A stretch of DNA of 17,497 nucleotides from the UHGV virus genome UHGV-0117027; one strand, 5' to 3'. The stretch is from a virus. Made by a program: the position numbers and the translations under genes. Positions 3,213 to 17,497 of this stretch are shown one piece after another. The notes under the pieces were generated by a model. That model had not been told where the DNA came from and ran no database searches. It worked only from the letters and a program-made list of their open reading frames with translations. The stretch's first letter is position 1, and the number at the start of each line of letters is the position of its first letter.

Positions 3213-5426
3213 ATGACAACAAATGTGGGCACGATTGAGTATACCGTTGACGCAAAAACCGAGCGGTTACTAGTAGCTCAACGCAAGGCGGAGGACTCGT
3301 TTGATAAAATCGAGCAAGGCGCTAAACGCACCGATAAATCAGTGCAGTCACTTAATACCACGATAAGTAATTTATCCAAAGCCGTGAACATTGGAATGAT
3401 GGTCATGGCTGCAAAAAAATTCCTGGAGATCGCAGATAACGTAAATCTGCTACGCGCCAGGGTAACACGACTATCAAGCGGCATTGCTGACGCAAAATCG
3501 AATTTTGACGGGATTGTTCAGATATCGAATCGCACAGGGATGAGTGTTCAAAGCACCGGGAAGCTGTGGGAAAGCCTAAAAGCCAGCCTACAGGATACCA
3601 GCGCGACCAGTCAGCAGGTATTGCAGCTTACCGACTCGCTTCAGAAAATAGGCCGTATCGGAGGTAGCTCATCAGATGAAATGTCAAACGCACTTCGCCA
3701 GTTAGGGCAGTCCCTGACGGGTGGCATTGTTCGCGCGGAAGAATACAACTCTGTGCTTGAAAACATGCCCGAAGTATGGCGACGCGTCGCCAAACAAATG
3801 GGGATCTCGATGGGTGAACTTCGCGCAAGAATGCTTGATGGTAAGCTCACCGCCGAGGATGTTACCAATTCAATTCTTGCTGGCGCAGAAGACATAGAGA
3901 AGGACTTCGCAAAACTGCCAACAACAACAGATCAGGCATTTAACGAGCTAAAAAACAACTTCGATCTGTTAATTGACACGCTAAACCAAACGCTTGGAGT
4001 GTCTGATTTGGTAGTTACTGGTATACAGGCTGTTTCTAGTGAAGTCCAGATGTTATCTGGTTGGTTTAAGTCCCTGGCGAGCGATAGCACGTCATTAACT
4101 GATAAATTGTGGCTATTGGCTGGGGCGTTTGAGGGTATAGTGCCTGGGCTTAGTTTGTTCCGCGCTCAAGCGAAACAGGTTGGATGGTTTGATGGCGGAG
4201 AACAGCCATTTGTTTCCACTCTCCCCACGGGGCAAGCTGGTGTAAGTCGCATAACGTTTAAGCCTCAACCTGGTGGTAAGGGTAAGAAAGGCAAAGGTAA
4301 AAAAACCGGCAAATCAGAAGCCGAGCGCCTTGCGGAACAGGGTGTGCGCATTTCAGATGCATATAACGAAGATTCGGCAGCAATGCGCAAAGCGCTTGAA
4401 TCACAAAAAGCCATAGATGCAGCCTTTAAAGCCGGGAAAATAACCATGCTTGAATACAAAGGCGCAATGAAGGGAATTGGTGATGAATTGCGCGAAACTC
4501 TGGCGGAAATTAACGACCCGATCAATAGGCTGCAAGAAAAATGGGACAAAATGATTCCATCACTGGATCAGAAGCGCGGTGAACTAGACCCAATACAGCA
4601 GGCGCAAAATGAATGGACCGTTCGTAAGCAAATGCTGGAAGATCTTGGCGCTACTGAGCAATATATGAGGGAACAAGAAAGAGCGCACGCACAGGAAATG
4701 CTCACCCTTGAGTGGGAGCGATATAAAGCACAGTCAATGAGCTACAAACTGTTGGGCGATACCGTTGATGCAATGGGCGGATCTGCAACAAATGCGCTTG
4801 TGGGCCTGGTTAACGGCACTCAAAGCTGGCAGCAGGCGCTGGCTAACATTGGCAATACAATCCTTTCCTCCGTTATCGGTACGCTTGTTCAAATGGGGGC
4901 TGAATGGGTCAAGCAGCAATTGATAGGCGAGGCCGCCAGCGCAGCCGCAACAGCTAAAGCATTGGCAGAGGCTACCGCTTTGGGATCTGCGTGGGCTACT
5001 CCTGCATACCTGGCAAACGTAGCCACGATGGGCGGCGCGGCGACCGTGGGGGGTACGAGTCTTGCCACTGGTGTGGCTGGAGCAAAAGCGCTTGGCCTGG
5101 CTGGCGCTCGTTATAACGGCGGTGCGGTGGCTGCGGGCAGCCTCTATAAGGTCGGCGAACACGGTAAACCGGAGATCTTTCAGGCGAGCAATGGGAGTCA
5201 GTACATGATCCCGGGTGACAACGGCAGGGTAATACCAAATCGCGACATTGGTGGTGCTGGTGGTGGTAGCGTTAGCATAAACGCGCCGATTAGTGTTTAC
5301 CCACAAAATGGATGGAGCGATGAGGATGCCAAAAAGCTGCAACAGGACATGGAAAGGATCTGCATGGGCCTGATGCACCGCGAATCATCCAGACCAGGCG
5401 GAATGCTGCAACCTCGCAGGAAATAA
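3213..5426 (+). CDS. tail tape measure protein
   Basis: 737-aa ORF after the chaperone; helical N-terminal two-thirds, a Lys/Gly-rich stretch (KPQPGGKGKKGKGKKTGK) and a Gly/Ala-rich C-terminal region; SD GGAG 9 nt upstream of the ATG. Confidence 0.9.
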   Translation: MTTNVGTIEYTVDAKTERLLVAQRKAEDSFDKIEQGAKRTDKSVQSLNTTISNLSKAVNIGMMVMAAKKFLEIADNVNLLRARVTRLSSGIADAKSNFDGIVQISNRTGMSVQSTGKLWESLKASLQDTSATSQQVLQLTDSLQKIGRIGGSSSDEMSNALRQLGQSLTGGIVRAEEYNSVLENMPEVWRRVAKQMGISMGELRARMLDGKLTAEDVTNSILAGAEDIEKDFAKLPTTTDQAFNELKNNFDLLIDTLNQTLGVSDLVVTGIQAVSSEVQMLSGWFKSLASDSTSLTDKLWLLAGAFEGIVPGLSLFRAQAKQVGWFDGGEQPFVSTLPTGQAGVSRITFKPQPGGKGKKGKGKKTGKSEAERLAEQGVRISDAYNEDSAAMRKALESQKAIDAAFKAGKITMLEYKGAMKGIGDELRETLAEINDPINRLQEKWDKMIPSLDQKRGELDPIQQAQNEWTVRKQMLEDLGATEQYMREQERAHAQEMLTLEWERYKAQSMSYKLLGDTVDAMGGSATNALVGLVNGTQSWQQALANIGNTILSSVIGTLVQMGAEWVKQQLIGEAASAAATAKALAEATALGSAWATPAYLANVATMGGAATVGGTSLATGVAGAKALGLAGARYNGGAVAAGSLYKVGEHGKPEIFQASNGSQYMIPGDNGRVIPNRDIGGAGGGSVSINAPISVYPQNGWSDEDAKKLQQDMERICMGLMHRESSRPGGMLQPRRK

Positions 5427-5432
5427 ACAAAA

Positions 5433-5460
5433 CCCCGGCACAATGCCGGGGCTATTTTAT
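5433..5460. terminator. hairpin terminator, candidate bidirectional, between convergent genes
   Basis: CCCCGGC (5433-5439), loop ACAAT, GCCGGGG (5445-5451), then TATTTTAT; on the other strand the hairpin is followed by TTTTGTTTATTT. The minus-strand 59-aa gene ends at 5457. Confidence 0.7.
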
Positions 5461-5636
5461 TCAATTTCATCATTTTTAAATTCGCCGTTTGCATAAAGCT
5501 GCAATGCTCTTATCAGTTCGTCAGCTTGCTTTTTGTCTATTACAATCATCTCGCAGTCGCTAACGATCCATAATCTTCCGTCATCTTCAATACTAAGATC
5601 AATCCTTCTGCATTCTTCAGTATCATGAATAATCAT
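5457..5636 (-). CDS. small protein (59 aa), unknown function
   Basis: ATG at 5636 with GAAGG SD 7 nt upstream; hand-translated as MIIHDTEECRRIDLSIEDDGRLWIVSDCEMIVIDKKQADELIRALQLYANGEFKNDEIE; last gene of a four-gene leftward operon. Confidence 0.5.
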   Translation of the reverse strand: MIIHDTEECRRIDLSIEDDGRLWIVSDCEMIVIDKKQADELIRALQLYANGEFKNDEIE

Positions 5637-5674
5637 TATAAACCTTCATCATGTTATTGATTTCGTGAATAAAT

Positions 5675-5845
5675 TTACTCAAATCTTGTATATCCTCTCT
5701 CAATTTTCCCTCCGTGTACACTTCTGGCAAATACCGCGTCAGTACACCTAAAAAATGGGCATGTATATGTATCCCCTTTACTATCCATATATTTTAGCAC
5801 CCATGCCATGCGTTTTACGTTGCTTTTATTTGCCGGATTTTTCAT
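5675..5845 (-). CDS. small protein (56 aa), unknown function
   Basis: Internal ATG at 5845 with GGAGG SD (8-nt spacer), preferred over the TTG start of the 64-aa track ORF; MKNPANKSNVKRMAWVLKYMDSKGDTYTCPFFRC... Confidence 0.45.
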   Translation of the reverse strand: MKNPANKSNVKRMAWVLKYMDSKGDTYTCPFFRCTDAVFARSVHGGKIERGYTRFE

Positions 5846-5876
5846 TTTGTTTTCCTCCGCAACATTCAAATCCGTG

Positions 5877-6131
5877 TCACTTGTGAGCGCCTTTCACCCC
5901 ACAGTGCCTGTTATATTCCAGGTGGTCAATAATTAACCACATCTTTAAATCTTCGCTGAATAACCGCCAATCGGGGTTGATGTCAAATTTATAACCGTAG
6001 CCATCGCGTAATTTTTTGGGGTTGGCCTCTTTTTTAAGAAAAGCATCAAGCAATTGCTTTCCTTTCTTGATGATCCGGTCCTGTGCGTTTTTCTGTGCTT
6101 TCAGGTTTTTACCAATCGCCACCAATTTCAT
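5877..6131 (-). CDS. small basic protein (84 aa); RelE/YafQ-like toxin fold is a weak by-eye candidate
   Basis: ATG at 6131 (track ORF starts at an upstream GTG). Lys-rich N-terminal half, then NPDWRLF strand, MWLIID strand and C-terminal EYNRH; recalled YafQ/RelE-type toxins share the PDW...strand...basic/His C-terminus pattern. Not verified by alignment. Confidence 0.5.
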   Translation of the reverse strand: MKLVAIGKNLKAQKNAQDRIIKKGKQLLDAFLKKEANPKKLRDGYGYKFDINPDWRLFSEDLKMWLIIDHLEYNRHCGVKGAHK

Positions 6132-6149
6132 AACACACCCCACAATCCA

Positions 6150-6305
6150 TTAGTTGACCACTTTCAGGAAGAAATCACGGTACTCGTTTTCCTTCGCATT
6201 CATCATGAATTGACCGTATTTGAATGCGTCATCAAAGCCTTTGACTATCGCCACTTCCACCTGTTCGAATGCGTTGTTCAGCATTACCACTACATAACGC
6301 TTCAT
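6150..6305 (-). CDS. small protein (51 aa), first gene of cassette
   Basis: ATG at 6305 preceded by AAAGGAGG SD (5-nt spacer); hand-translated as MKRYVVVMLNNAFEQVEVAIVKGFDDAFKYGQFMMNAKENEYRDFFLKVVN; stop 18 nt before the 84-aa gene start. Confidence 0.5.
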   Translation of the reverse strand: MKRYVVVMLNNAFEQVEVAIVKGFDDAFKYGQFMMNAKENEYRDFFLKVVN

Positions 6306-6346
6306 ATTGGCCTCCTTTGTCGGTACTGCTTTTTCTTCTTGCTTAC

Positions 6347-6375
6347 TATATACATCTTGTCACGCCTTATGTGAA
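6347..6375 (-). promoter_or_regulatory. candidate sigma70-type promoter for the four-gene leftward cassette
   Basis: Minus strand reads TTCACA (+ coords 6370-6375), 17-bp spacer, TATATA (+ coords 6347-6352), about 40 nt upstream of the first cassette start codon. Confidence 0.35.
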
Positions 6376-6390
6376 GCCATTTTGTAAACT
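6376..6390. promoter_or_regulatory. conserved intergenic element GCCATTTTGTAAACT
   Basis: 14 of 15 identical to GCCATTTTGTTAACT at 7972-7986; both sit at the head of a leftward cassette and contain the ACAAAATGG core on the minus strand. Confidence 0.45.
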
Positions 6391-6474
6391 GGTTATAATT
6401 CTTGTGATGAATTTCTCATTTTTCGCGTAGAAGCGCGTAAAGATGTATGCAATATGTAACTTATAGGGGGAATC

Positions 6475-6828
6475 ATGCCAGAAGTTTTCAGATGGACGCC
6501 GCAAAGAAGCTACAGCGTGACCAGGGAACCAAATGTGTCTGTCGTTAAACTTGGTGATGGTTATGAACAGCGCCAGGCGAAAGGGATTAACACGTTGCTT
6601 GATAGTTATACCCTGGTTTTCAAAGGCAGTAGCGCGGGATGTGGTGATGGTGGAAACGTGGCGATCCAGGCCGAAGCATTTTTGAGGGCGCGCGGCGCTG
6701 TCGAGGCGTTTTACTGGACTCCATCGATCGACGGGGTGCAAAGGCTTTTCGTTTGCCGTAGCTGGAGCATGACCAAAGACGGGCCTGTGTACACGCTAAA
6801 CGCAACGTTTGAACAAGTTGTTGGCTAA
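6475..6828 (+). CDS. M: minor tail protein M homologue (distal tail protein)
   Basis: 117 aa; N-terminal FRW...V..V.LGDGYEQR and C-terminal ...FEQVV match the lambda gpM pattern as recalled (FRW...FGDGYSQR...EFEQVV); GGGGGA SD upstream. Confidence 0.9.
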   Translation: MPEVFRWTPQRSYSVTREPNVSVVKLGDGYEQRQAKGINTLLDSYTLVFKGSSAGCGDGGNVAIQAEAFLRARGAVEAFYWTPSIDGVQRLFVCRSWSMTKDGPVYTLNATFEQVVG

Positions 6829-6840
6829 TGGGGGGTTGTT

Positions 6841-6981
6841 ATGTACGGGACTTGTGTGGTTGACAAAACTTACGCTTTTACATTGTTTGACGACTATGAG
6901 ATCAACGACCTTACTGTAAAAGCTGACAACGGCGATATATGGTATCTTCACGACGTTGGCGATGGGTACGTGGGGGTGTAG
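6841..6981 (+). CDS. small ORF (46 aa) downstream of M, unknown
   Basis: ATG 6841 preceded by GGGGGG SD (5-nt spacer), 13 nt after the M stop; MYGTCVVDKTYAFTLFDDYEINDLTVKADNGDIWYLHDVGDGYVGV; below the ORF-track length cutoff. Confidence 0.3.
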   Translation: MYGTCVVDKTYAFTLFDDYEINDLTVKADNGDIWYLHDVGDGYVGV

Positions 6982-7033
6982 ATCCCGGGAAGGGAAGGGG
7001 GTTTTATTTTTGGTTGATGGCGTATAAACACGA

Positions 7034-7061
7034 CCCCGCGCGAAGCGGGGTTATTATTATT
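7034..7061. terminator. GC hairpin with T-tract (candidate terminator, possibly bidirectional)
   Basis: CCCCGC (7034-7039), loop GCGAA, GCGGGG (7045-7050), then TTATTATTATT; the minus-strand cassette ends at 7057 inside the T-tract. Confidence 0.5.
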
Positions 7062-7173
7062 CCATTTCCATTAATGCTATATTTTCCGCTATCGTTTTCC
7101 AGTCCAGATCTACAGCATGAACGCCAAATACTATCAATCCCATTATTATTAGCGCCAAAACTTCTATTTTCAT
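7057..7173 (-). CDS. small hydrophobic peptide (38 aa), predicted single-pass membrane peptide
   Basis: ATG at 7173 with AGGTG SD (7-nt spacer); hand-translated as MKIEVLALIIMGLIVFGVHAVDLDWKTIAENIALMEME; the hydrophobic stretch LALIIMGLIVFGV would span a membrane. Confidence 0.4.
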   Translation of the reverse strand: MKIEVLALIIMGLIVFGVHAVDLDWKTIAENIALMEME

Positions 7174-7183
7174 AATCTGTCAC

Positions 7184-7432
7184 CTATAAGTTATCACGCA
7201 GATAATTAACGCCCTTATCAGTGACGAATGAATGGTTAACCTGGTTTTCATCCGTCATGATGATAAATAACTTTTCCTGTAGGTATTTAGCTTTCGGGTA
7301 CAGCGTTAAACAGACCTGGTACAGTATCCCGCGCTCAATCAGCAAATCAATAAATTCGTGTTCATGATAACCAACGAGGCGGGCGGCCTGTTTCAGCGTG
7401 TACACATAATCGCCGTGATTGCGCCGCCCCAT
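7184..7432 (-). CDS. small protein (82 aa) with helix-turn-helix-like segment, putative DNA-binding
   Basis: Start at 7432 overlaps an AGGGGG SD placed on the upstream gene stop; segment TLKQAARLVGYHEHEFIDLLIERGIL resembles an HTH. Family not identified. Confidence 0.55.
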   Translation of the reverse strand: MGRRNHGDYVYTLKQAARLVGYHEHEFIDLLIERGILYQVCLTLYPKAKYLQEKLFIIMTDENQVNHSFVTDKGVNYLRDNL

Positions 7433-7441
7433 GTATCCCCC

Positions 7442-7789
7442 TTATTTATCGAATGCTGCAAGATTATCCATGCAGAAGTCTTTCGCAGCTTTTTCGTATT
7501 CGCGTTTTGCTTCTGGATCGTCAGCCGGGAAACCTTTTGCGTGTATTTCACCAGGGCAAGACTGATCCATAGAGTCTGCAAAATTAACATTGAAGTTAAC
7601 ATTAATATCTTTCGGGTTCATATCTTCCACCTCATCAACTATCTGTACCGGATTAGCAGCATATTTCACTGGATGGCCTAAACTACATTCAAGAATCCTG
7701 CCTTCTTCCAGGGCTACTTCTTCGCTATCAAATAATCCGAAACACTCCTTGCTACCACTTAACCACACATCAAGACTGTATTTTTTCAT
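7442..7789 (-). CDS. acidic protein (115 aa), unknown function
   Basis: Internal ATG at 7789 (MKKYSLDVWLSGSKE...) with GAGG SD, preferred over the longer 149-aa track ORF whose 5' part overlaps the upstream gene in another frame. Confidence 0.55.
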   Translation of the reverse strand: MKKYSLDVWLSGSKECFGLFDSEEVALEEGRILECSLGHPVKYAANPVQIVDEVEDMNPKDINVNFNVNFADSMDQSCPGEIHAKGFPADDPEAKREYEKAAKDFCMDNLAAFDK

Positions 7790-7958
7790 TTTTGTTAGCC
7801 TCATATTTGACAGGTTCGATCTGGTATCCCAAAAGGCGGTCATCCTCAGCAAGTAAAAGCGCGTCAACCAATGCTTCCCCCTCGTCGTCATACAGGGCGA
7901 TAACCTTTTCCCTACCGTCTGTCATGAATACCGTCAACTTCCATGGCTTTTCAGTCAT
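7770..7958 (-). CDS. small acidic protein (62 aa; alternative in-frame start at 7976 gives 68 aa)
   Basis: ATG 7958 with GGAGG SD (6-nt spacer); the in-frame ATG at 7976 also has an AAGGGGAAG SD and lies inside the conserved ACAAAATGG element. Overlaps the next gene by 20 nt. Confidence 0.5.
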   Translation of the reverse strand: MTEKPWKLTVFMTDGREKVIALYDDEGEALVDALLLAEDDRLLGYQIEPVKYEANKNEKIQS

Positions 7959-7971
7959 AACGCACCTCCGC

Positions 7972-7986
7972 GCCATTTTGTTAACT
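7972..7986. promoter_or_regulatory. conserved intergenic element GCCATTTTGTTAACT
   Basis: Near-identical to 6376-6390; a related CCATTTTGG lies at 8035-8043 and an oppositely oriented ATCACAAAATG at 8064-8074. Confidence 0.45.
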
Positions 7987-8063
7987 TCCCCTTCGTTTGA
8001 GTAAAATATACATATTGTAAAAACCATGAACAATCCATTTTGGTGTGATTTAGCGTGACGCAT

Positions 8064-8074
8064 ATCACAAAATG
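8064..8074 (+). promoter_or_regulatory. ATCACAAAATG element 24 nt upstream of the L start
   Basis: Same core as ATCACAAAAGTGG (3190-3202, 23 nt before the tape-measure ATG) and ATCACAAAATGG (15373-15384, before the tail-fibre gene). Confidence 0.45.
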
Positions 8075-8087
8075 ACAAGGTGAGAAA

Positions 8088-8792
8088 ATGCGCAATATTC
8101 CGAGAGAGATGATTATTGATTCCGTCGATGCCGGAGTTGGCGCGGTCATTGACTTATTTGAACTGGACCTTACTCCCCTGGGAGGCGAGGTTATCCGCTT
8201 CCATTCCGGCGCGAACGGCTATTACGGCCAGGTTATCTGGAAGGGAGTAGCTTACAACAGCTACCCGATCGAGACGACGGGCTTCGAAATGAAAAACGAG
8301 GGCGTTTATTCGCGGCCTCAAATGGTTGTAGCCAATATCGGCGGGCTAATCACAGGGATGAATAACGATTTCAACGACCTGCGAGGAATGAAGGTTACGC
8401 GCCGCCAGGTGGAGGTTAAATACCTGGACGCCGTTAACTTCCCTAACGGCAATCCAGACGCAGATCCATCTATTGAGGCTGTATCTTTTTACGTCGTTGA
8501 AGCAATGAGCGAAGAAACAGCGGATCAGGTGCAATATGAATTGTCAACGCCAATTGATGCAGATAAAGCCGTTATCCCAGGGCGCACCATCCTTGCTGAC
8601 GTTTGTCAGTGGCAATACAGAGGCGACGGGTGCATGTATTCTGGCGGCCCGGTCGCAACTGATAAAGATACACCAACAAGTGACCCAACGTTAGACAAAT
8701 GCAGCCACCGCCTTAGCGGTTGCCGTTTGCGTTTTCCGCGTCCGGCAGCACTGCCGATCTCCTGTTTTCCTGGTTCCAGCAAGGTAGGTTAA
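8088..8792 (+). CDS. L: minor tail protein L homologue
   Basis: 234 aa; segments ...RRQVEVKYLDAVNFPNGNPDADP..., ...PGRTILADVCQWQYRGDGCMYSGGPVATD...DKCS..LSGC closely parallel lambda gpL as recalled, including four C-terminal cysteines (lambda L binds an Fe-S cluster). Confidence 0.9.
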   Translation: MRNIPREMIIDSVDAGVGAVIDLFELDLTPLGGEVIRFHSGANGYYGQVIWKGVAYNSYPIETTGFEMKNEGVYSRPQMVVANIGGLITGMNNDFNDLRGMKVTRRQVEVKYLDAVNFPNGNPDADPSIEAVSFYVVEAMSEETADQVQYELSTPIDADKAVIPGRTILADVCQWQYRGDGCMYSGGPVATDKDTPTSDPTLDKCSHRLSGCRLRFPRPAALPISCFPGSSKVG

Positions 8793-10013: not shown

Positions 10014-13000
10014 ATGAGTAGCGGCGGCGGCAAAGCAAAAACACCAACATTAATAAATGATAACCTTTATCACAAACAGTTTTATCGTGTGCTGGATATT
10101 ATTTCGGAAGGCCCGATTTATGGCCCTGTCAATACCAGTGCGCCATTAAATAGCGTAATGCTTAATGACACGCCTGTAACTGACGCGAACGGTAATACCA
10201 GCATCCCAGGCGTTAGCGTGGCGTGGCGTAATGGTACGTTAGATCAATCACCGATTAACGGTTTTAATGCCATCGAATCCACGGTAATGGTTAACGCACA
10301 GGTGAAACACGACACGCCGCTGGTAAGGACCGTATCAGATCCGAACGTGACGCGAGTCCGGTTAAATATTGGTGTGGATTCACTGGTGGAAAGCGATAGC
10401 CAATCAAACCAGAAAGAAACATCTGTCATTATGGCGATCGACGTTAAACCGTCCTCATCCTCAACATGGTCGTCTATTAAGGCCGTGCAAATAGGTCCAG
10501 GTAAAATCAGCGGAGAATACCTTGAAGCGCATATTATTGATGCGCCAGATGAAAAGCCGTTTGATATTCGCGTTCGCCGCGTAACCGCTGATAGCACAGG
10601 TGATCTATTGCAGAATGATACGCGGTGGAGTAGCTACAGCGAAATAATCGACGATAATTTGTCTTATCCTCACACTGCTGTAGCAGGCGCGGTAATTGAT
10701 CACGATCAGTATACTGACACACCTACACGCACTTATCACCTGCGTGGGCTTATTGTTGACGTGCCTGATAACTACGACCCGGAAACGCGCACTTATTCCG
10801 GTTTATGGCTTGGCGGCTTTAAACAGGCTTACACTAATAACCCTGCGTGGATCTTTCGTTACCTGGTTAAAAACGAGCGTTTCGGCCTTGCCCGCCATGC
10901 TGGTTATATCGACGTTGACGACGGCGCATTATACACACTTTCCCAATACTGCGACCAGTTGGTCGATGATGGTTACGGTGGCCTTGAGCCTCGCGTGACG
11001 CTTAATGCGTACATAACAGAGCAAATGAGCGCCCGCGATTTGCTGGACAATATCGCCGGGATGTTCCGTGGCATCGCGTTATGGGACGGGCAACGTCTTA
11101 CCGTAATGATTGATGCACCGCAAGATCCAATCGCCACCATTACGAATGCAAACGTCGTTGATGGCGCGTTCACTCGTTCGAGTATCGCCCGTGCGGAATG
11201 CTACAACGCCGTGATCGTATCCTGGACTGACCCGGAAAACGGGTGGGAGCAGTCAAAAGAGTATGTAGCAGATGATGAGCTAATCGCCCGCGATGGTTAC
11301 AACGAAACCACGATGGAGGCGTTCGGCTGTACGTCACGCGGGCAAGCGTACCGCGCGGGCAAATGGCTGATAGAAACAGCAAAACGCGAGCCGTCAAAAT
11401 TCACGTTTAAAATGGCACGTGACGCGATTCACTTTACGCCAGGGGATATAGTCGAAATCCTCGACAATAACCGCGCAGGTGCGCGTTTAGGTGGGCGTAT
11501 CGTGGCGAACAATGGAAACGTGATAACGGTCGATAAGGTTGACAGCGACTATATCACAGCAGGCGACACCATCAGCTTACTCGACAGCGACGGCAAATTT
11601 AAAAAACATCAGATTACTGGTGTAAACGGAAACGAAATCACACTAGCGGCGGCCCCGGCATGGATTCGGAACGGTACTGTATTTGCTGTATCCACCGAAG
11701 CGGAAAAACCCGTTTTATGCCGGATCACCAGTGTAGCCGAAACCGAAAATAATAGCGTGTATACCATCGAAGCAGCGCAACATGACCCGAACAAACAAGC
11801 GGTAGTCGATGAAGGCGCGATATTTGAAATCAACAACGACACGCTTAATCACTTCCGTGTCCCGAACATTGAAAACCTGAAAGTGGTAAACATCGGATCT
11901 GAAACAGTTCAATGCCGAGCTACATGGGAAACACAGACAACCACGCATCGCATGACATTCGAGATCCGCATATACAATACTGATGGTGCGGTGGTTAAAA
12001 GCTACGAAACAACGAAATACAGTTATGATTTTTATGGTATTGACGCTGGCGCGTATTCGTTAGGCGTTCGCGGAAGAAACGATACTGGCATGAAAGGCGC
12101 TGAAAGCATTGTTGATCTTGTTATTGGTGCTCCAGCCGCGCCAGTTGGCGTAAATTGGGTTCCAGGCGTATTTCAGGCGACCGTGTACCCGATAAGCAAA
12201 ACCACGCTTACTACCGATACGTCATATGAATTCTACTATGCAGGGGAAAATCAGATCACAGATCCGGCAAAAATAACCACGTCGGCACAGTTTACCGGGC
12301 GCGGGTATCAGTGGACGTTCGGCGGCATGAATACGGGCCATACTTATTACGTTTATGTGCGCACTCGTAATGCTTTTGGTGTGTCTGATTTCGTCGAGGC
12401 ATCAGGTAAGCCAACAGAGGATTTTGACGAAATCACTGATTACGTTACAAAGGATGTAATGGAATCAGAGCAATTCAAGGAGATGATTAGCGACATTAAA
12501 GATCTTGGTGAGCGCACTGATATTGTAGAAGGAGCTACCGAAGACCTTAAAATAGCTACAGAGGATCTTAAAGCTGACACAGATACACTTAAAAAAGACA
12601 CCGAAGACCTTTATAAAAAAGTCGAAGAAAACGCCGATGAAATAGGCAAACATGAGGTAAGAATAGACTCATTAGAGGTATCAAACGAAAACGTTAACAA
12701 CGAACTGGCACAGGCAAAAGCAAGTTTACAAAACGCTTCGCTTGCTCTGATCAATAACTCGCTTGCTCAAACTAACACGCGGGTTACTCTTACCGCTCAA
12801 TATAAGAAAGGTCGCAACGAAACAAAGGCACAGATTGACCGCATCGACAACGTTATCGCAGAGGAGAAAAAAGCGACAGCGGAATCACTGGAAACCATCA
12901 CAGCCGAAATAAATACGATAGACTCAAACATCAAAGGAGAAATAGCCCGCGTAGACAAAGCAATCGCAACCGAAACGCAGGCGAGAACGGAAGCTATAAG

Positions 13001-14066
13001 CAACGTTAACGCCAGTATCAGCAGCCTGGAAAACAAAACTGATGCGAGCGTTTCTCGTCTCGATCAAGCTATCGCTGACGAATCAAGCGCCCGCGCTCAG
13101 GCAATATCAGGAATCAGTGCGGAGCTTGGTCTTGTTGAAAATGAGGTTGATAAAAACAGCAACGAAATAGATCAGGCAAAAGCAAGTCTGCAAAACGCCT
13201 CGATTGCACTTATCAACAACTCAATAGCGCAAAGCAAGATGAGCACCGTTATTGAGGCGAAGTACAGGAAAGGCCAGACAAAAACAAAAGCGGAAATAGC
13301 AAGGATCGACACAGCAATAGCAGACGAAACCCAGGCCCGCGCGGAGGCTATAGCATCACTTGAAGCCAATATTAATGAAAACATTTCAGCAAAAATAACA
13401 GATATATCAACGGCGCTCGCAACTCACGAGGCATCAAGTGCTGAAAAATTTGTTCAAATATCGGCATCTTTCGACGATGTAAACTCAAGTATCACGGAAT
13501 GGTCACAGGCCATGACAACGACTGACGAGGCATTATCAACCAAAATTGACCAGTTAAAAGTAACTATTGACGGGAACACAACAGCCATAGAGACGACATC
13601 GAAAGCGTTAACGGACTTTAAGGGGAATGTCGATGCATCATACTCTATTAAGATCGCGACAGACAGCAGAGGCGTTAAATATGCTACCGGCATGTCGCTC
13701 GGCCTTACTGGTAGCGGGACTAATGTCCAATCGCAGTGTATTTTCCTCGTTGATCGCTTCGTGTTAATGACCGCCGCAAACGGCACATATACAACGCCTT
13801 TCTATGTCACTGGCGGCGCAATGTATGTACGTGAAGCGTTTATTAAGGACGCATCAATCACTAACGCGAAAATAGGTTCTTACATCCAATCAAATAACTA
13901 TGTTTCCGGCAGCACAGGCTGGAAACTTGATAAATCCGGTACATTCGAAAACTACGGATCAGTAAGCGGTGAAGGAGCAATGAAATGGACGAACACAACT
14001 ATCTCAGTAAAAGATGGTAATGGCGTGTTACGCGTCCAGATTGGGCGAATTACCGGATCATGGTAG
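10014..14066 (+). CDS. J: host specificity / central tail fibre protein J homologue with extended coiled-coil stalk
   Basis: 1350-aa ORF directly after I with AGGAG SD; large N-terminal tail-tip region, a heptad-rich repetitive stalk (about aa 800-1200) and a beta-rich C-terminal domain; position and size match lambda J. Confidence 0.9.
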   Translation: MSSGGGKAKTPTLINDNLYHKQFYRVLDIISEGPIYGPVNTSAPLNSVMLNDTPVTDANGNTSIPGVSVAWRNGTLDQSPINGFNAIESTVMVNAQVKHDTPLVRTVSDPNVTRVRLNIGVDSLVESDSQSNQKETSVIMAIDVKPSSSSTWSSIKAVQIGPGKISGEYLEAHIIDAPDEKPFDIRVRRVTADSTGDLLQNDTRWSSYSEIIDDNLSYPHTAVAGAVIDHDQYTDTPTRTYHLRGLIVDVPDNYDPETRTYSGLWLGGFKQAYTNNPAWIFRYLVKNERFGLARHAGYIDVDDGALYTLSQYCDQLVDDGYGGLEPRVTLNAYITEQMSARDLLDNIAGMFRGIALWDGQRLTVMIDAPQDPIATITNANVVDGAFTRSSIARAECYNAVIVSWTDPENGWEQSKEYVADDELIARDGYNETTMEAFGCTSRGQAYRAGKWLIETAKREPSKFTFKMARDAIHFTPGDIVEILDNNRAGARLGGRIVANNGNVITVDKVDSDYITAGDTISLLDSDGKFKKHQITGVNGNEITLAAAPAWIRNGTVFAVSTEAEKPVLCRITSVAETENNSVYTIEAAQHDPNKQAVVDEGAIFEINNDTLNHFRVPNIENLKVVNIGSETVQCRATWETQTTTHRMTFEIRIYNTDGAVVKSYETTKYSYDFYGIDAGAYSLGVRGRNDTGMKGAESIVDLVIGAPAAPVGVNWVPGVFQATVYPISKTTLTTDTSYEFYYAGENQITDPAKITTSAQFTGRGYQWTFGGMNTGHTYYVYVRTRNAFGVSDFVEASGKPTEDFDEITDYVTKDVMESEQFKEMISDIKDLGERTDIVEGATEDLKIATEDLKADTDTLKKDTEDLYKKVEENADEIGKHEVRIDSLEVSNENVNNELAQAKASLQNASLALINNSLAQTNTRVTLTAQYKKGRNETKAQIDRIDNVIAEEKKATAESLETITAEINTIDSNIKGEIARVDKAIATETQARTEAISNVNASISSLENKTDASVSRLDQAIADESSARAQAISGISAELGLVENEVDKNSNEIDQAKASLQNASIALINNSIAQSKMSTVIEAKYRKGQTKTKAEIARIDTAIADETQARAEAIASLEANINENISAKITDISTALATHEASSAEKFVQISASFDDVNSSITEWSQAMTTTDEALSTKIDQLKVTIDGNTTAIETTSKALTDFKGNVDASYSIKIATDSRGVKYATGMSLGLTGSGTNVQSQCIFLVDRFVLMTAANGTYTTPFYVTGGAMYVREAFIKDASITNAKIGSYIQSNNYVSGSTGWKLDKSGTFENYGSVSGEGAMKWTNTTISVKDGNGVLRVQIGRITGSW
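12711..13634 (+). repeat. in-frame tandem duplication (period 462 nt = 154 codons) inside J
   Basis: CAGGCAAAAGCAAGT...CAAAACGC at 12711 recurs at 13173; protein QAKASLQNASLALINNSLAQ versus QAKASLQNASIALINNSIAQ; shorter R[IVL]D-x-[AV]IA-x-E..AR.EAI units occur at least four times. Confidence 0.6.
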
Positions 14067-14072
14067 AATTAA

Positions 14073-14102
14073 GAGGCCGACTTGTTCGGCCTCAGTTTTA
14101 TT
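14073..14102 (+). terminator. rho-independent terminator / attenuator after J
   Basis: GAGGCCG (14073-14079), loop ACTTGTT, CGGCCTC (14087-14093), then AGTTTTATT; the SD of the next gene (GGAGG 14105-14109) follows immediately. Confidence 0.6.
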
Positions 14103-14116
14103 ATGGAGGTGTAACT

Positions 14117-14428
14117 ATGGATACTTTCGGCGTGGCAACATGGGACGCCAACGGCAACGCTAATAACTACGGCATCAAGCCATCCGTCGTGGTTGGCTAT
14201 ATTTCCTTGTCTTCCGGGCAAGTGTCAGGCACATATAATTTTACCGTTCCTACAGGATGTAAATTATCTTATGCCATGACGCTTGATTATGGCACAACAT
14301 CATCAACGCGTAGAAAGATCAGTATTTCCGGCGGTACTGTTTCCATTTCCTCAGCAGGGGATACGGTGGGCGCTAATATATGGCCCGCATCGCAATGTGA
14401 ACTGGTTATTTTTACGGAGAACGCATAA
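14117..14428 (+). CDS. small beta-rich protein (103 aa), tail-associated, unknown function
   Basis: ATG 14117 with GGAGG SD (7-nt spacer); stop TAA abuts the next ATG (TAAATG); N-terminus MDTFGVATWDANGNANN resembles that of the following gene. Confidence 0.55.
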   Translation: MDTFGVATWDANGNANNYGIKPSVVVGYISLSSGQVSGTYNFTVPTGCKLSYAMTLDYGTTSSTRRKISISGGTVSISSAGDTVGANIWPASQCELVIFTENA

Positions 14429-15028
14429 ATGGCTACTTTCGGCGCTTATTTACGTTTAAGTAATGGCAATATTTTCGTAACTCCAGATTCGACACCTATG
14501 TGCCTTTATTCACGGGTTGCTCTCAATTCAAGCCAACAGCAAACAATAGCCGTCCCCAATGGGAAGCCTGTAATGGTATTCATAAAAAACACAGACGATA
14601 CCGCTACTGGTGTAGCCTATCGCAATTCATCGTCTACCATAGTGATTCCACCAGGAAACGGTTACGCGTATATATTCAGTATCTTCCCGCAATCGCGTCC
14701 GAAGTGGGGTATGGCTATATGGAACGCTTCCGGTGAACTGGTATTGACAAACGAATCAAGAATATTGACAGACATTGTTACGGTGGGGACAGCCGGATCA
14801 AGTGGTGGAATTTATATCGACCAGACATTATCAGGATCTTATGCGGTAGTGCCTCAGATATTAGGGGCCGTTGTAGGTATGGGTTCTGCGACAATATATA
14901 CAGAGGCATACTACAACGGCAGCACTACACGAATTCGCGGGAAGATGGTTGGTAGCTTGCAACAGATTTACGGTTACATTAATCACGGGAACGCTATCAC
15001 CGCCATTAAAACCGACGCCTATGATTAA
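14429..15028 (+). CDS. beta-rich protein (199 aa), paralogue-like partner of the upstream gene, unknown function
   Basis: Translationally coupled to the upstream gene; N-terminus MATFGAYLRLSNGN...; Ser/Thr/Gly/Asn-rich like fibre or adhesin domains. Confidence 0.6.
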   Translation: MATFGAYLRLSNGNIFVTPDSTPMCLYSRVALNSSQQQTIAVPNGKPVMVFIKNTDDTATGVAYRNSSSTIVIPPGNGYAYIFSIFPQSRPKWGMAIWNASGELVLTNESRILTDIVTVGTAGSSGGIYIDQTLSGSYAVVPQILGAVVGMGSATIYTEAYYNGSTTRIRGKMVGSLQQIYGYINHGNAITAIKTDAYD

Positions 15029-15264
15029 TTCAGTTCCGGGCAATCCGTTTTCTTGAAGTGGTCAACGCTTACCCATTGGAAGTTAAACGGATACCCGGCC
15101 TTAACCATTTTATGACCGCCAACATCCGCGACACCGAAGACTGCAACCGCATATTCATTACCGCCAGCCTGATAAATTGCCGTGCATTCACGTTTCGGCA
15201 TATCAGCACAACCAACCATACCAGCGACCATTGCAGCTATAGCGATATTTTTAAAGCCTTTCAT
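15025..15264 (-). CDS. small lipoprotein (79-aa precursor), candidate Cor/Llp-type superinfection exclusion protein
   Basis: ATG at 15264 with GGAGGA SD (7-nt spacer), preferred over the far-upstream track start at 15408; MKGFKNIAIAAMVAGMVG-C: signal peptide plus lipobox-like Cys, mature part about 60 aa with two more Cys. Divergent from the tail-fibre gene. Confidence 0.6.
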   Translation of the reverse strand: MKGFKNIAIAAMVAGMVGCADMPKRECTAIYQAGGNEYAVAVFGVADVGGHKMVKAGYPFNFQWVSVDHFKKTDCPELN

Positions 15265-15341
15265 TGTCTTATCCTCCATTGTTCCGTCGGTTGTAGTATC
15301 CATAAACATCGTTTTCTCAACATTGATATAAATCAATAAAT

Positions 15342-15384
15342 ACATTTTGTATAGGTCAGGAATGTAACACAGATCACAAAATGG
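15342..15384 (+). promoter_or_regulatory. conserved bipartite element upstream of the tail-fibre gene
   Basis: ACATTTTGTATA (15342-15353), 13 bp, ACACAGATCACAAAA (15367-15381) then TGG; exact copies of the two blocks at 3164-3175 and 3184-3198. Confidence 0.5.
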
Positions 15385-15423
15385 TAAAATTACCAGGTTA
15401 ATTAACATAATGGAGTCATTGCG

Positions 15424-17220
15424 ATGATTTACACAACAGGCACGATAGCCGTTAGCGGAAAAACAGTTACCGGAACGGGGACTGAATTCAACGCCGCATT
15501 ATCTCTGATCAGAGTTGGGTGCACTCTTATTGCCATTAGCGATCCGGTGCAAATTTTTTCAATCACAGAGGTAAAAAGCGCAACAAGTTTGTCGGTAACT
15601 CCGGCGGCAAGTCCGGCTATTCCGGCTGGGACTAAATTTAGCATCCTGCTTTCAGATTCGATCTCTGTAGATGGTCTTGCTCAGGATGTTGCCGAAACAC
15701 TACGTTACTATCAGGGCAAGGAATCAGAAATAGCTGACGCCGTCGAATTTTTTAGCGACAACAAAGATGTGATTTCAGCCTCAAAATTAGCATCAGAATC
15801 AGCTACCACTGCAACCAACGCAGCAACAACAGCAACAAGCGCCGCCGATTCAGCTAAGGCATACAGAGACGAGGCCCACGAATACGCCAATCAGACGGCT
15901 CAGCCTTACGCGTATGTTTTGCAGCCGCTGCCGGATGTATGGATACCGTTTAACGATTCTCTCGATATGATTACTGGTTTTTCTCCTTCCTATAAAAAAA
16001 TTGTTATTGGTGACGATGAAATAACGATGCCTGGCGACAAGATTGTTAAGTTTAAACGTGCATCGAAAGCAACCTATATTAACAAATCTGGTGTGCTGAC
16101 AGAGGCTGCCATTGACGAGCCACGATTTGAACGTGATGGCCTGCTTATTGAGGGGCAAAGAACGAACTTCTTCCAGAACAGTGCAGACCCTTCGAAGTGG
16201 AATAAGTCAACTTCACTGGACGTTACAGAAACAGGCACAGATAGTTTCGGGTTTAATTATGGCCGGTTTGTCGTACAGGATTCGATTGTTGGTACAAGTA
16301 AAGCGCATACCATTATCGGACTGTATTCGAGTACCGGAGGGGTTGATACTTCAGGGGACGAAAAGTATGTAACTATATCCTGTCGGGTAAAAAGTGAAGT
16401 TGATAATATCGCCGTTCGTATTTTATTTGAACATTATGATGGGGAGGTAAGGACATCAATAGGAACAGCAAACCTTAACCTTACCACCCGCATAATTAGC
16501 AAGACAGGTCAGACAAGCCGTGTTACAGCAAGGTCTGTTAAGGATGATGCAACTGGCTGGATATTTTTTGAGGCTACATTAAAAGCAGATACAACAGAAA
16601 ATACGGTTGGTGGTTTTGTCCAGTATTCTCCAGATACAGGGCAGATGGTTGCATCAGGGGATTATCTCGATGTAACCACTCCACAGATTGAGGCTGGTAC
16701 AGGCGCATCATCTTTTATTGTTACGGGGACGGCGGCGGCAACGCGTGCAAGTGACATAGCCACGGCCCCGATAAAGAACAACCTTTATAATGCACCATTC
16801 ACTATTCTTTGCGAGGTACATAAAAATTGGGAAAAAACGCCGAGTTCAGCGCCGCGTGTTTTTGACACAGGCGGCCATCAGACTGGCGCGGCTATAATTC
16901 TTGCTTTTGGGTCGTCGACAGAATACGACGGATTTCCTTATTGCGATATTGGAGGAGCAAACAGGCGCGTTAACGAAAACGCATCAATGCAAAAAATGAT
17001 TATCGGCATGAGGGTTAAAAGCACCTATGATGCATGTTGTGTCAGTAACGGACGCATATCAAGCGAAACAAAAACAACATGGAGATATATATCTAACGCA
17101 GCAATATTCCGTTTCGGCGGTCAAACAACATCAGGGGAGCGACATCTTTTTGGACACATTAGAAATTTCAGGGTATGGCACAAAGCATTAACCGATGCGC
17201 AATTGAGCGAGATTGTTTAA
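15424..17220 (+). CDS. side tail fibre protein with Ala/Thr-rich N-terminal region and LamG/ConA-like C-terminal domain (putative)
   Basis: 598 aa; GGAG SD 8 nt upstream; low-complexity SESATTATNAATTATSAADSAKAYRDEA typical of tail-fibre N-terminal regions; C-terminal ...RHLFGHIRNFRVWHKALTDAQLSEIV resembles the end of LamG-like jelly-roll domains. Confidence 0.8.
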   Translation: MIYTTGTIAVSGKTVTGTGTEFNAALSLIRVGCTLIAISDPVQIFSITEVKSATSLSVTPAASPAIPAGTKFSILLSDSISVDGLAQDVAETLRYYQGKESEIADAVEFFSDNKDVISASKLASESATTATNAATTATSAADSAKAYRDEAHEYANQTAQPYAYVLQPLPDVWIPFNDSLDMITGFSPSYKKIVIGDDEITMPGDKIVKFKRASKATYINKSGVLTEAAIDEPRFERDGLLIEGQRTNFFQNSADPSKWNKSTSLDVTETGTDSFGFNYGRFVVQDSIVGTSKAHTIIGLYSSTGGVDTSGDEKYVTISCRVKSEVDNIAVRILFEHYDGEVRTSIGTANLNLTTRIISKTGQTSRVTARSVKDDATGWIFFEATLKADTTENTVGGFVQYSPDTGQMVASGDYLDVTTPQIEAGTGASSFIVTGTAAATRASDIATAPIKNNLYNAPFTILCEVHKNWEKTPSSAPRVFDTGGHQTGAAIILAFGSSTEYDGFPYCDIGGANRRVNENASMQKMIIGMRVKSTYDACCVSNGRISSETKTTWRYISNAAIFRFGGQTTSGERHLFGHIRNFRVWHKALTDAQLSEIV

Positions 17221-17230
17221 GGTGGTGAAT

Positions 17231-17497
17231 ATGAAAGATGTTAGCTTGCAATTTACTGATAAACAGCAATACAACGATATTGTGATTAATAGCGGCTGGC
17301 TGGACGCCAACTGGTCAACCGTATTTGTTGATGAAATTGGTTTTGTGCCTGTATTCGATGATCCAGAAAGTGAGACACCTGTACTGATTGAGCAAAAGGG
17401 CTATTACGTCAACATGCGCATTACTGGCGACGATGTTGATTTGTCGCCGCTGGAAAAATTCATCATCACAGATCCCGGCGTCCGCGCATGGGCTTGA
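17231..17497 (+). CDS. small protein (88 aa) downstream of tail fibre, possible fibre assembly/accessory protein
   Basis: ATG 17231 with AGGTGGTG SD, 10 nt after the fibre stop; in-frame TGA at 17495-17497 ends the ORF exactly at the window edge. Function from position only. Confidence 0.45.
   Translation: MKDVSLQFTDKQQYNDIVINSGWLDANWSTVFVDEIGFVPVFDDPESETPVLIEQKGYYVNMRITGDDVDLSPLEKFIITDPGVRAWA

Follow-up and report, generated by a model that had tools for sequence, protein, structure and literature searches.

A probable cor gene, encoding a superinfection-exclusion lipoprotein, in the tail module of an mEp021-like Escherichia coli prophage

T1 and phi80 are classic FhuA phages, and Cor is a textbook function of lysogenic conversion; in phi80 its gene is annotated as a moron for lysogenic conversion, blocking FhuA. 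In the virulent phage T5 an early-expressed lipoprotein, Llp (PDB 8A60 with FhuA and 7QJF free), binds the periplasmic face and the plug of the same transporter, carries a Cys11-Cys58 disulfide and closes the receptor allosterically, the extracellular loops EL7 and EL8 folding inward so that the phage receptor-binding protein is blocked (PMC9586334). In work with the BASEL collection, the locus downstream of gpJ was described in allelic variants that correspond to the different receptors (PMC8594841), and a 2026 study of KanT1 described a cassette formed by Cor and two upstream genes as a consistent feature of the FhuA-targeting BASEL phages (PMC13164509). In this line, Rtp45 (PDB 9RPS), from the LptD-targeting phage Rtp, is, as Cor is predicted to be, a small outer-membrane lipoprotein of the periplasmic face, encoded downstream of gpJ, and it alters the extracellular loops of its receptor; it targets LptDE, however, which is no TonB-dependent transporter. 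A further set of exclusion lipoproteins is encoded in the mEpimmI group of temperate phages (PMC11893012), where experiments showed that the type-A protein of mEp021 excludes OmpA-dependent relatives, and the type-C protein of mEp010 excludes LamB-dependent relatives but not mEp013 itself.

The gene considered here lies at positions 15025..15264, on the minus strand, of a stretch of 17,497 nucleotides (the window, which means the whole piece of DNA that was analysed). It represents the tail module of a temperate phage like mEp021 and mEp013, to which its DNA is about 85% identical. The gene is most probably cor (a probability of roughly 0.85), that is, the gene for the lipoprotein by which FhuA-dependent siphophages bring about superinfection exclusion and lysogenic conversion, carried in this case by an mEp021-like (mEpimmI) E. 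coli prophage. An initial annotation had proposed a receptor-masking factor of the Cor/Llp kind purely by analogy, seeing no direct sequence similarity to either protein. This last statement was wrong. The protein matches PHROG 1119, 'Cor superinfection exclusion protein', at an E-value of 1.2e-22, and the NCBIfam equivalog NF047972, 'phage exclusion lipoprotein Cor', with 54.1 bits (cutoff 31; E 1.1e-14) over model positions 8-76 of 78, and in pairwise blastp comparisons it is 60.6% identical to Cor of PeterMerian, 48% to that of T1, 36% to that of HK75 and 33% to that of phi80; with the tblastn matches included, identity is about 60% for Cor proteins of Drexlerviridae and Dhillonvirus phages and 48-49% for that of T1. 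How many relatives were recovered depended strongly on the method: a word-indexed search with the single protein sequence gave 8 and a profile search 20, and by far the most productive was tblastn against phage genomes, with 229 records at E ≤ 0.01, 212 of them at E ≤ 0.001. Judged by these alignments, the gene is a true homologue of cor and not a mere analogue.

The lipobox cysteine, Cys27, Cys75 and the tetrapeptide G57-Y58-P59-F60 are invariant in the 17-18 aligned Cor members (T1, phi80 and HK75 included), and the mature protein contains the motif AGYPF-x-[FWY]-x-[WY]-V, whose GYPF core is invariant across the family alignments. Pfam-A holds no model for the family and gave no match to the 79-aa protein even at E ≤ 1. 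The name itself is not new, as RefSeq already assigns 'cor: phage exclusion lipoprotein Cor' to the gene in prophages of the E. coli strains M15, where the locus is 99.5% identical to the window over 14000-17497, and Ecol_244, with 94.7% identity over the aligned 68% of the same interval; the latter prophage is among the 48 genomes of the published mEpimmI group (PMC11893012). We are thus dealing with a known family member, which adds no new kind of system. An o-spanin reading of the gene was also considered and was rejected, given the specific match to the Cor family and the position in a tail module and not beside lysis genes.

The open reading frame runs on the minus strand from an ATG at 15264 to a stop codon at 15027-15025 and encodes the precursor MKGFKNIAIAAMVAGMVGCADMPKRECTAIYQAGGNEYAVAVFGVADVGGHKMVKAGYPFNFQWVSVDHFKKTDCPELN. 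A mechanical list of open reading frames gives it 127 aa from an ATG at 15408, but the shorter form is the correct one, since a strong Shine-Dalgarno sequence (GGAGGA) lies 7 nt 5' of the ATG at 15264, the alignments of all family members start at the Met of the 79-aa form, and in six phages (T1, PeterMerian, bob, JulesPiccard, phi80 and HK75) in-frame stops are found upstream of this Met. The PGAP calls differ between strains, 79 aa in Ecol_244 and 127 aa in M15, and the longer forms of 127 and 106 aa in databases and in the mechanical list are therefore rejected as start-codon miscalls. The window allele differs from that of Ecol_244 at 5 nucleotides; 4 of the changes are synonymous and one (M16L) is not, which leaves the proteins 98.7% identical. 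The frame is a real gene under constraint and no chance ORF. The 79-aa precursor with a signal peptide and a lipobox-like cysteine that had originally been described thus holds, on the evidence of the frame, the Shine-Dalgarno sequence and the alignments.

The signal peptide, read from sequence patterns, comprises residues 1-18, with the n-region MKGFK (Lys2 and Lys5) and a 13-residue hydrophobic core leading to the lipobox MVG|C19. Residues 9-19 match the PROSITE PS51257-type lipobox pattern; the strict pattern [LVI][ASTVI][GAS]C is not matched, solely owing to the Met at -3. A Met is unusual at this position. In Ecol_244 a Leu stands there (LVGC), and each of the two alleles, MVGC and LVGC, is present in many independent assemblies; one protein cluster comprises 97 members. 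The N-terminus accordingly has the features of a lipoprotein signal peptide and would make the precursor a putative substrate of signal peptidase II. The predicted mature protein has 61 aa (about 6.7 kDa), with three cysteines, Cys1 (predicted to be lipidated), Cys9 and Cys57, which are Cys19, Cys27 and Cys75 in precursor numbering. In E. coli, an Asp at +2 keeps a lipoprotein in the inner membrane; the residue at +2 of mature Cor is Ala, and sorting to the outer membrane is therefore implied.

The initial annotation had stressed the linkage to a fibre gene, and the geometry is as it described, with cor divergent from a 598-aa lateral fibre gene at 15424-17220 across a 159-bp spacer. The informative neighbours, however, lie on the other side, in a cassette of about 1.46 kb (about 13860-15320) that holds the C-terminal tip of J, two small genes and, as its last gene, cor. 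The J-like central tail fibre gene occupies 10014-14066 on the plus strand, and its last ~70 codons (13860..14066) form the left end of the swapped cassette. Just after its stop codon comes a GC-rich hairpin with an 8-bp stem (14073..14093) that is terminator-like on both strands; in T1 a terminator is annotated in the corresponding place, between ST32 and the homologue of J. The first small gene (14117..14428, plus strand) encodes a gp22-like protein of 103 aa that matches PHROG 557, 'outer membrane protein' (E 1.3e-28). The correct start codon is that of Met20 in the 122-aa frame of the mechanical list, in agreement with PGAP in Ecol_244 and M15, and alignments with PeterMerian bas05_0023 (59% identity), phi80 gp22 (51%) and T1 ST32 (44%) begin at residues 20-23. 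The second (14429..15028, plus strand) encodes a gp23-like protein of 199 aa that matches PHROG 425, 'membrane associated protein' (E 1.3e-49), and is 62% identical to PeterMerian bas05_0024 and 44-50% identical to T1 ST31, phi80 gp23 and HK75 gp22. Neither of these two proteins matched Pfam-A at E ≤ 0.001, and PADLOC matched none of the three small cassette proteins. Altogether, the three proteins are 59-62% identical to their PeterMerian counterparts, while against those of T1, phi80 and HK75 the gp22-like and gp23-like proteins reach 44-51% and Cor 33-48%.

As for the function of the two small genes, they were regarded as putative receptor-binding proteins in the BASEL paper (PMC8594841), and a link to exclusion was suggested in the KanT1 paper (PMC13164509); the gp23-like protein may accordingly be a putative receptor-binding component or have an exclusion-linked role. 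The in-situ structure paper on T1 was consulted for a role of the gp22 and gp23 homologues, and the C-terminal central fibre is unresolved there.

Comparison with the two described types of cor locus places the window close to the first of them. The Cor proteins of T1, PeterMerian and other Drexlerviridae and Dhillonvirus phages, of 72-79 aa, are 48-62% identical to the window protein and have in common with it the lipobox cysteine, the two further cysteines and AGYPF; the window arrangement, with cor convergent to the pair of small genes, recurs unchanged in T1, PeterMerian, bob and JulesPiccard. The window Cor differs in an N-terminus 2 residues longer, an additional C-terminal PELN tail and a lipobox MVGC where the T1-type proteins have L[TS]GC. 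The stop codons of cor and of the convergent 199-aa gene (14429-15028) overlap by 4 nt, with neither spacer nor terminator, unlike in T1-type loci, and the window phage is a temperate, mEpimmI-type prophage, whereas T1-like phages are virulent. On the other hand, the Cor proteins of phi80, N15, the HK022-like HK75 and mEp167 belong to the same family at 33-36% identity, with the three cysteines and the motif in common, but have a 3-residue insertion before the second cysteine. The lambdoid genes sit in the same position, after the gp22 and gp23 homologues, but are co-oriented with J-gp22-gp23 and have their own annotated promoter and terminator, whereas the window cor is convergent.

The limits of the cassette come into view when the window is aligned with its relatives at the nucleotide level. 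By blastn, homology to mEp013 stops at 13858 and restarts at 15322, and homology to mEp021 stops at 13875 and restarts at 15336, while homology to PeterMerian covers 13845-15214. The proteins agree: by blastp the window J matches the J of mEp013 only to aa 1312, and the C-termini of the T1 and phi80 J proteins to the very end. Base composition gives no clear sign of foreign origin, the GC content of the cassette (about 0.44-0.48) being that of its surroundings, with a single dip, to about 0.38, around the intergenic region. By the alignments, cor forms with the J tip and the gp22-like and gp23-like genes one conserved and horizontally exchanged cassette.

In the sister phages the same place is filled by other genes. 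Like the mEpimmI Lpp genes, the window cor lies on the minus strand between J and the fibre gene that follows, and it has slot, strand and phage group in common with type A (mEp021 gp81, linked to OmpA) and type C (mEp010/mEp013, linked to LamB). In mEp013, a J about 150 aa longer is followed by an unrelated 82-aa lipoprotein gene on the minus strand, and in mEp021 a J longer still is followed by a 311-aa gene and a 72-aa lipoprotein gene; a blastp comparison of the window Cor with these two lipoproteins (mEp021_81 and mEp013_104) gave no match at E ≤ 0.01. The mEpimmI Lpp genes pair with long C-terminal receptor-binding domains of J, whereas the window cor pairs with gp22-like and gp23-like genes. 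Despite their unrelated lipoprotein genes, mEp013 and mEp021 conserve with the window, in a four-way alignment, a distal block of the intergenic region at about 15322-15423, beside the fibre gene. This block is common to three types of cargo, and the locus therefore looks like an exchangeable module of recognition and matching exclusion, of which the window carries the T1/phi80-type version; the cassette has taken the place of the lipoprotein and of the J C-terminus, specific for LamB or OmpA, that the sister phages have.

In this regard, mEpimmI phages would change receptor by exchanging a module of about 1.5 kb that moves recognition and exclusion genes together, a tidy case of modular co-transfer; the lipoprotein slot of this phage group was published before (PMC11893012). 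The sole mildly new point is the predicted use of FhuA by a subset of mEpimmI phages through a T1/phi80-type cassette. We consider it somewhat more probable than otherwise that, among temperate phages of the mEpimmI type (Nus-dependent and non-lambdoid), this is the first for which use of FhuA is predicted, by means of a complete recognition and exclusion cassette acquired from the T1/Drexlerviridae gene pool, and that the block at 15322-15423 serves as a shared expression site for swapped lipoproteins and receptor-binding determinants specific for OmpA, LamB or FhuA.

The prediction of FhuA comes from the phages that carry the same genes. The closest whole cassette is that of PeterMerian (Bas05), whose terminal receptor was determined by experiment to be FhuA (BASEL S5 table); from this, from the use of FhuA by T1 and phi80 and from the BASEL and KanT1 reports, we infer that FhuA is the receptor of the prophage and the target of its Cor. 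The practical value of the cassette is thus predictive, its presence indicating FhuA as the terminal receptor of a prophage.

How such a protein might act is suggested by its predicted fold. An AlphaFold2 model of mature Cor (pLDDT 83.9) has five beta-strands and is predicted to be a small beta-barrel superimposable on T5 Llp. The comparison with Llp and Cor models that had been recommended at the outset came out in favour of both: in Foldseek searches of the PDB, Llp (8a60_B) was the top match, with a TM-score of 0.59 and a weak E-value of 0.036 for what is a common small barrel fold, and in BFVD a Cor protein came first (TM 0.91) and lipoproteins of T5-like phages next. Llp is the best PDB match by two methods, with a structure-based identity of 23-27%; the alignment profile of Cor also found it among PDB sequences at E 0.0018 (21.7 bits), in an aligned stretch that is partly signal peptide. 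The Cys9-Cys57 spacing of the mature protein matches Cys11-Cys58 of Llp, and a Cys27-Cys75 disulfide (precursor numbering) is accordingly expected by analogy. Some differences should be kept in mind, as Llp lacks AGYPF, the window Cor reaches no Llp-specific family model, and pb5, the receptor-binding partner of Llp in T5, is unrelated to the gp22-like and gp23-like proteins. The only similarity of the window Cor to Rtp45 is a profile match at the level of the signal peptide (E 2.4).

The Llp-like fold, the cysteine spacing and two recent papers that arrive at this view for other Cor proteins together make an allosteric jamming of FhuA from the periplasm, as by Llp, the most likely mechanism. 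The 79-aa precursor would be exported, acquire its lipid on Cys19 and be cut by signal peptidase II, and the disulfide would tie the ends of the small SH3-like barrel, which would then bind the periplasmic face and the plug of FhuA. So locked, the transporter would no longer offer extracellular loops that accept the receptor-binding proteins of phages, and neither the lysogen nor the debris of lysed cells would adsorb cognate or other FhuA-dependent phages. A Cor lysogen would be expected to resist T1, T5, phi80 and other phages of this kind; it may also resist colicin M and albomycin, and its ferrichrome uptake is the likely price. Of the receptor-masking factor first proposed, membership of the Cor family stands by sequence and the Llp fold by the model, but a literal masking of the outer surface is improbable, and we prefer jamming of the Llp type.

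Three other explanations have to be weighed against this one. Cor might block FhuA-dependent infection in a way unlike Llp, through other outer-membrane protein partners or by stopping DNA entry after adsorption. A 2026 preprint on Llp indeed calls the molecular mechanism of Cor exclusion not elucidated, and Cor and Llp are only 23-27% identical; yet the predicted Cor fold is that of Llp, which is the top PDB match by both methods, the cysteine pattern is retained, and that same preprint reports a predicted structural similarity to Llp for other Cor proteins and, where it cites Uc-Mass 2004, a general inactivation of FhuA functions by Cor. An AF3 model reported for KanT1 Cor has an ipTM of 0.84 (PMC13164509). 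We regard a non-Llp mechanism as unlikely. Still lower is the probability that a Cor-family lipoprotein and its cassette have been retargeted to a receptor other than FhuA, for instance another TonB-dependent transporter, with different phages excluded as a result. The cassette proteins are, it is true, only 44-62% identical to those of proven FhuA phages, and receptor-matched exclusion lipoproteins for BtuB, LptD, YncD, LamB and OmpA are found in related slots (PMC8594841, PMC11893012). But phages with the J-gp22-gp23-cor arrangement and a determined receptor (T1, phi80 and PeterMerian) use FhuA across a range of 33-60% identity to the window Cor, and the HK75 cassette is of the same lambdoid type as that of phi80; moreover, the KanT1 study places the cassette specifically in FhuA-targeting BASEL phages (PMC13164509), and the gene arrangement differs considerably between loci for different receptors (PMC8594841).

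The last possibility, which we hold to be very improbable, is that the allele is decaying or inactive, either because the Met at -3 prevents lipoprotein processing or because the gene is not expressed. MVGC does fall outside the strict lipobox consensus, and a sigma-70 scan upstream of cor found no promoter scoring at least 9/12, the best candidate reaching 8/12 in a relaxed scan. Such a simple scan is insensitive, however, and both the many independent assemblies with MVGC or LVGC and the 4:1 ratio of synonymous to non-synonymous substitutions relative to Ecol_244 speak against decay, as do the strong Shine-Dalgarno sequence and the match to the PS51257-type pattern. Jamming of FhuA by an active Cor remains the preferred reading.

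For its expression, which we assume to take place from the prophage in the lysogen, the divergent intergenic region (15265..15423), whose sequence was read directly, offers the ribosome-binding site of cor and the distal conserved block, where the cor promoter presumably lies together with the leader and ribosome-binding site of the fibre gene. A Fur box, which would have meant co-regulation with fhuA, was looked for as well, and the idea was dropped, since no site scored above 11/19 against the 19-bp consensus. No terminator lies directly 3' of cor, because its stop codon overlaps the convergent gene; the first terminator-like hairpin that transcription on the minus strand meets after cor is the one at 14093-14073, so that transcripts of cor may continue, in antisense, across both small genes.

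The fibre gene lying downstream of cor, the exclusion lipoprotein gene (window 15424-17220 for the fibre gene), is mosaic as judged from its protein matches. The fibre of the sister phage mEp013 matches that of the window only over the first ~112 aa (81%), and that of mEp021 over ~160 aa (55%). The rest of the protein resembles the tail fibres of the unrelated coliphages ev243, 2G7b and PhiR49_2, and also matches the NCBIfam 'phage head spike fiber' (GTA-like) domain. In the related prophage of the E. coli M15 chromosome, an IS903B element (IS5-like; NZ_CP185789 5489-6545) is found at a site equivalent to window ~15487, just within the 5' end of this gene. The M15 prophage is otherwise 99.98-99.1% identical to the window and, since its fibre gene is interrupted by IS903B, the window derives from a relative without the element. 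In the chromosomes of both M15 and E. coli Ecol_244, which carries another related prophage, the prophage ends beyond the right end of the window, ~0.4 kb before ydaN/zntB, in a zntB-dbpA-ttcA neighbourhood, and therefore the right edge of the window lies near the prophage-chromosome junction.

The conserved intergenic block between cor and the fibre gene contains short palindromes (15265-15423, minus strand), such as TTGATTTATATCAA and GTTAATTAAC, and these palindromes are kept in mEp013 and Ecol_244 although the adjoining lipoprotein genes differ. The palindromes may be regulatory, but neither a promoter nor a Fur box was assignable in 15265-15423. Regarding the lipoprotein itself, the published survey of mEpimmI phages relied on the strict motif [LVI][ASTVI][GAS]C to find lipoproteins, and 8 of its 48 genomes were reported to lack one (PMC11893012). 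The MVGC allele of the window (lipobox codons at 15208-15219) falls outside this motif, and therefore some of those eight genomes might carry alleles of this kind.

A Cor gene 59-62% identical to that of the window was also observed in eight phage records with Campylobacter jejuni given as the host, among them Campylobacter phages A14a (MG065641), A13a (MG065679), A14b (MG065640), A136 (MG065687) and A15b (MG065637), these five being 47-48 kb in size with a single exception of 22 kb. The Cor scores of the Campylobacter-labelled records equal those of E. coli T1-like phages. The host label of these records looks doubtful; as an alternative to a wrong label, they may represent contaminating coliphages.

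Further upstream, the J-like central tail fibre (1350 aa; gene at 10014-14066) shows a long, internally repetitive, coiled-coil-like stretch at residues ~820-1180, which gives weak SMC-type matches and to which the J protein of mEp021 aligns by blastp at several offsets. The length of J differs among relatives: that of mEp013 has 1504 aa and that of mEp021 has 1727 aa. The tail module also holds two stretches (window ~5430-8090) with nothing but short ORFs on both strands, which are bordered by the tape-measure gene (3213-5426) on the left and the L-like gene (8088-8792) on the right, and separated by a minor-tail gene of ~117 aa (6475-6828). In mEp021, the annotation of their counterparts shows islands of small genes on the minus strand with terminators at the borders; a zinc-ribbon protein and an antirepressor-like protein are among the products. 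The stretches in the window are possibly moron islands.
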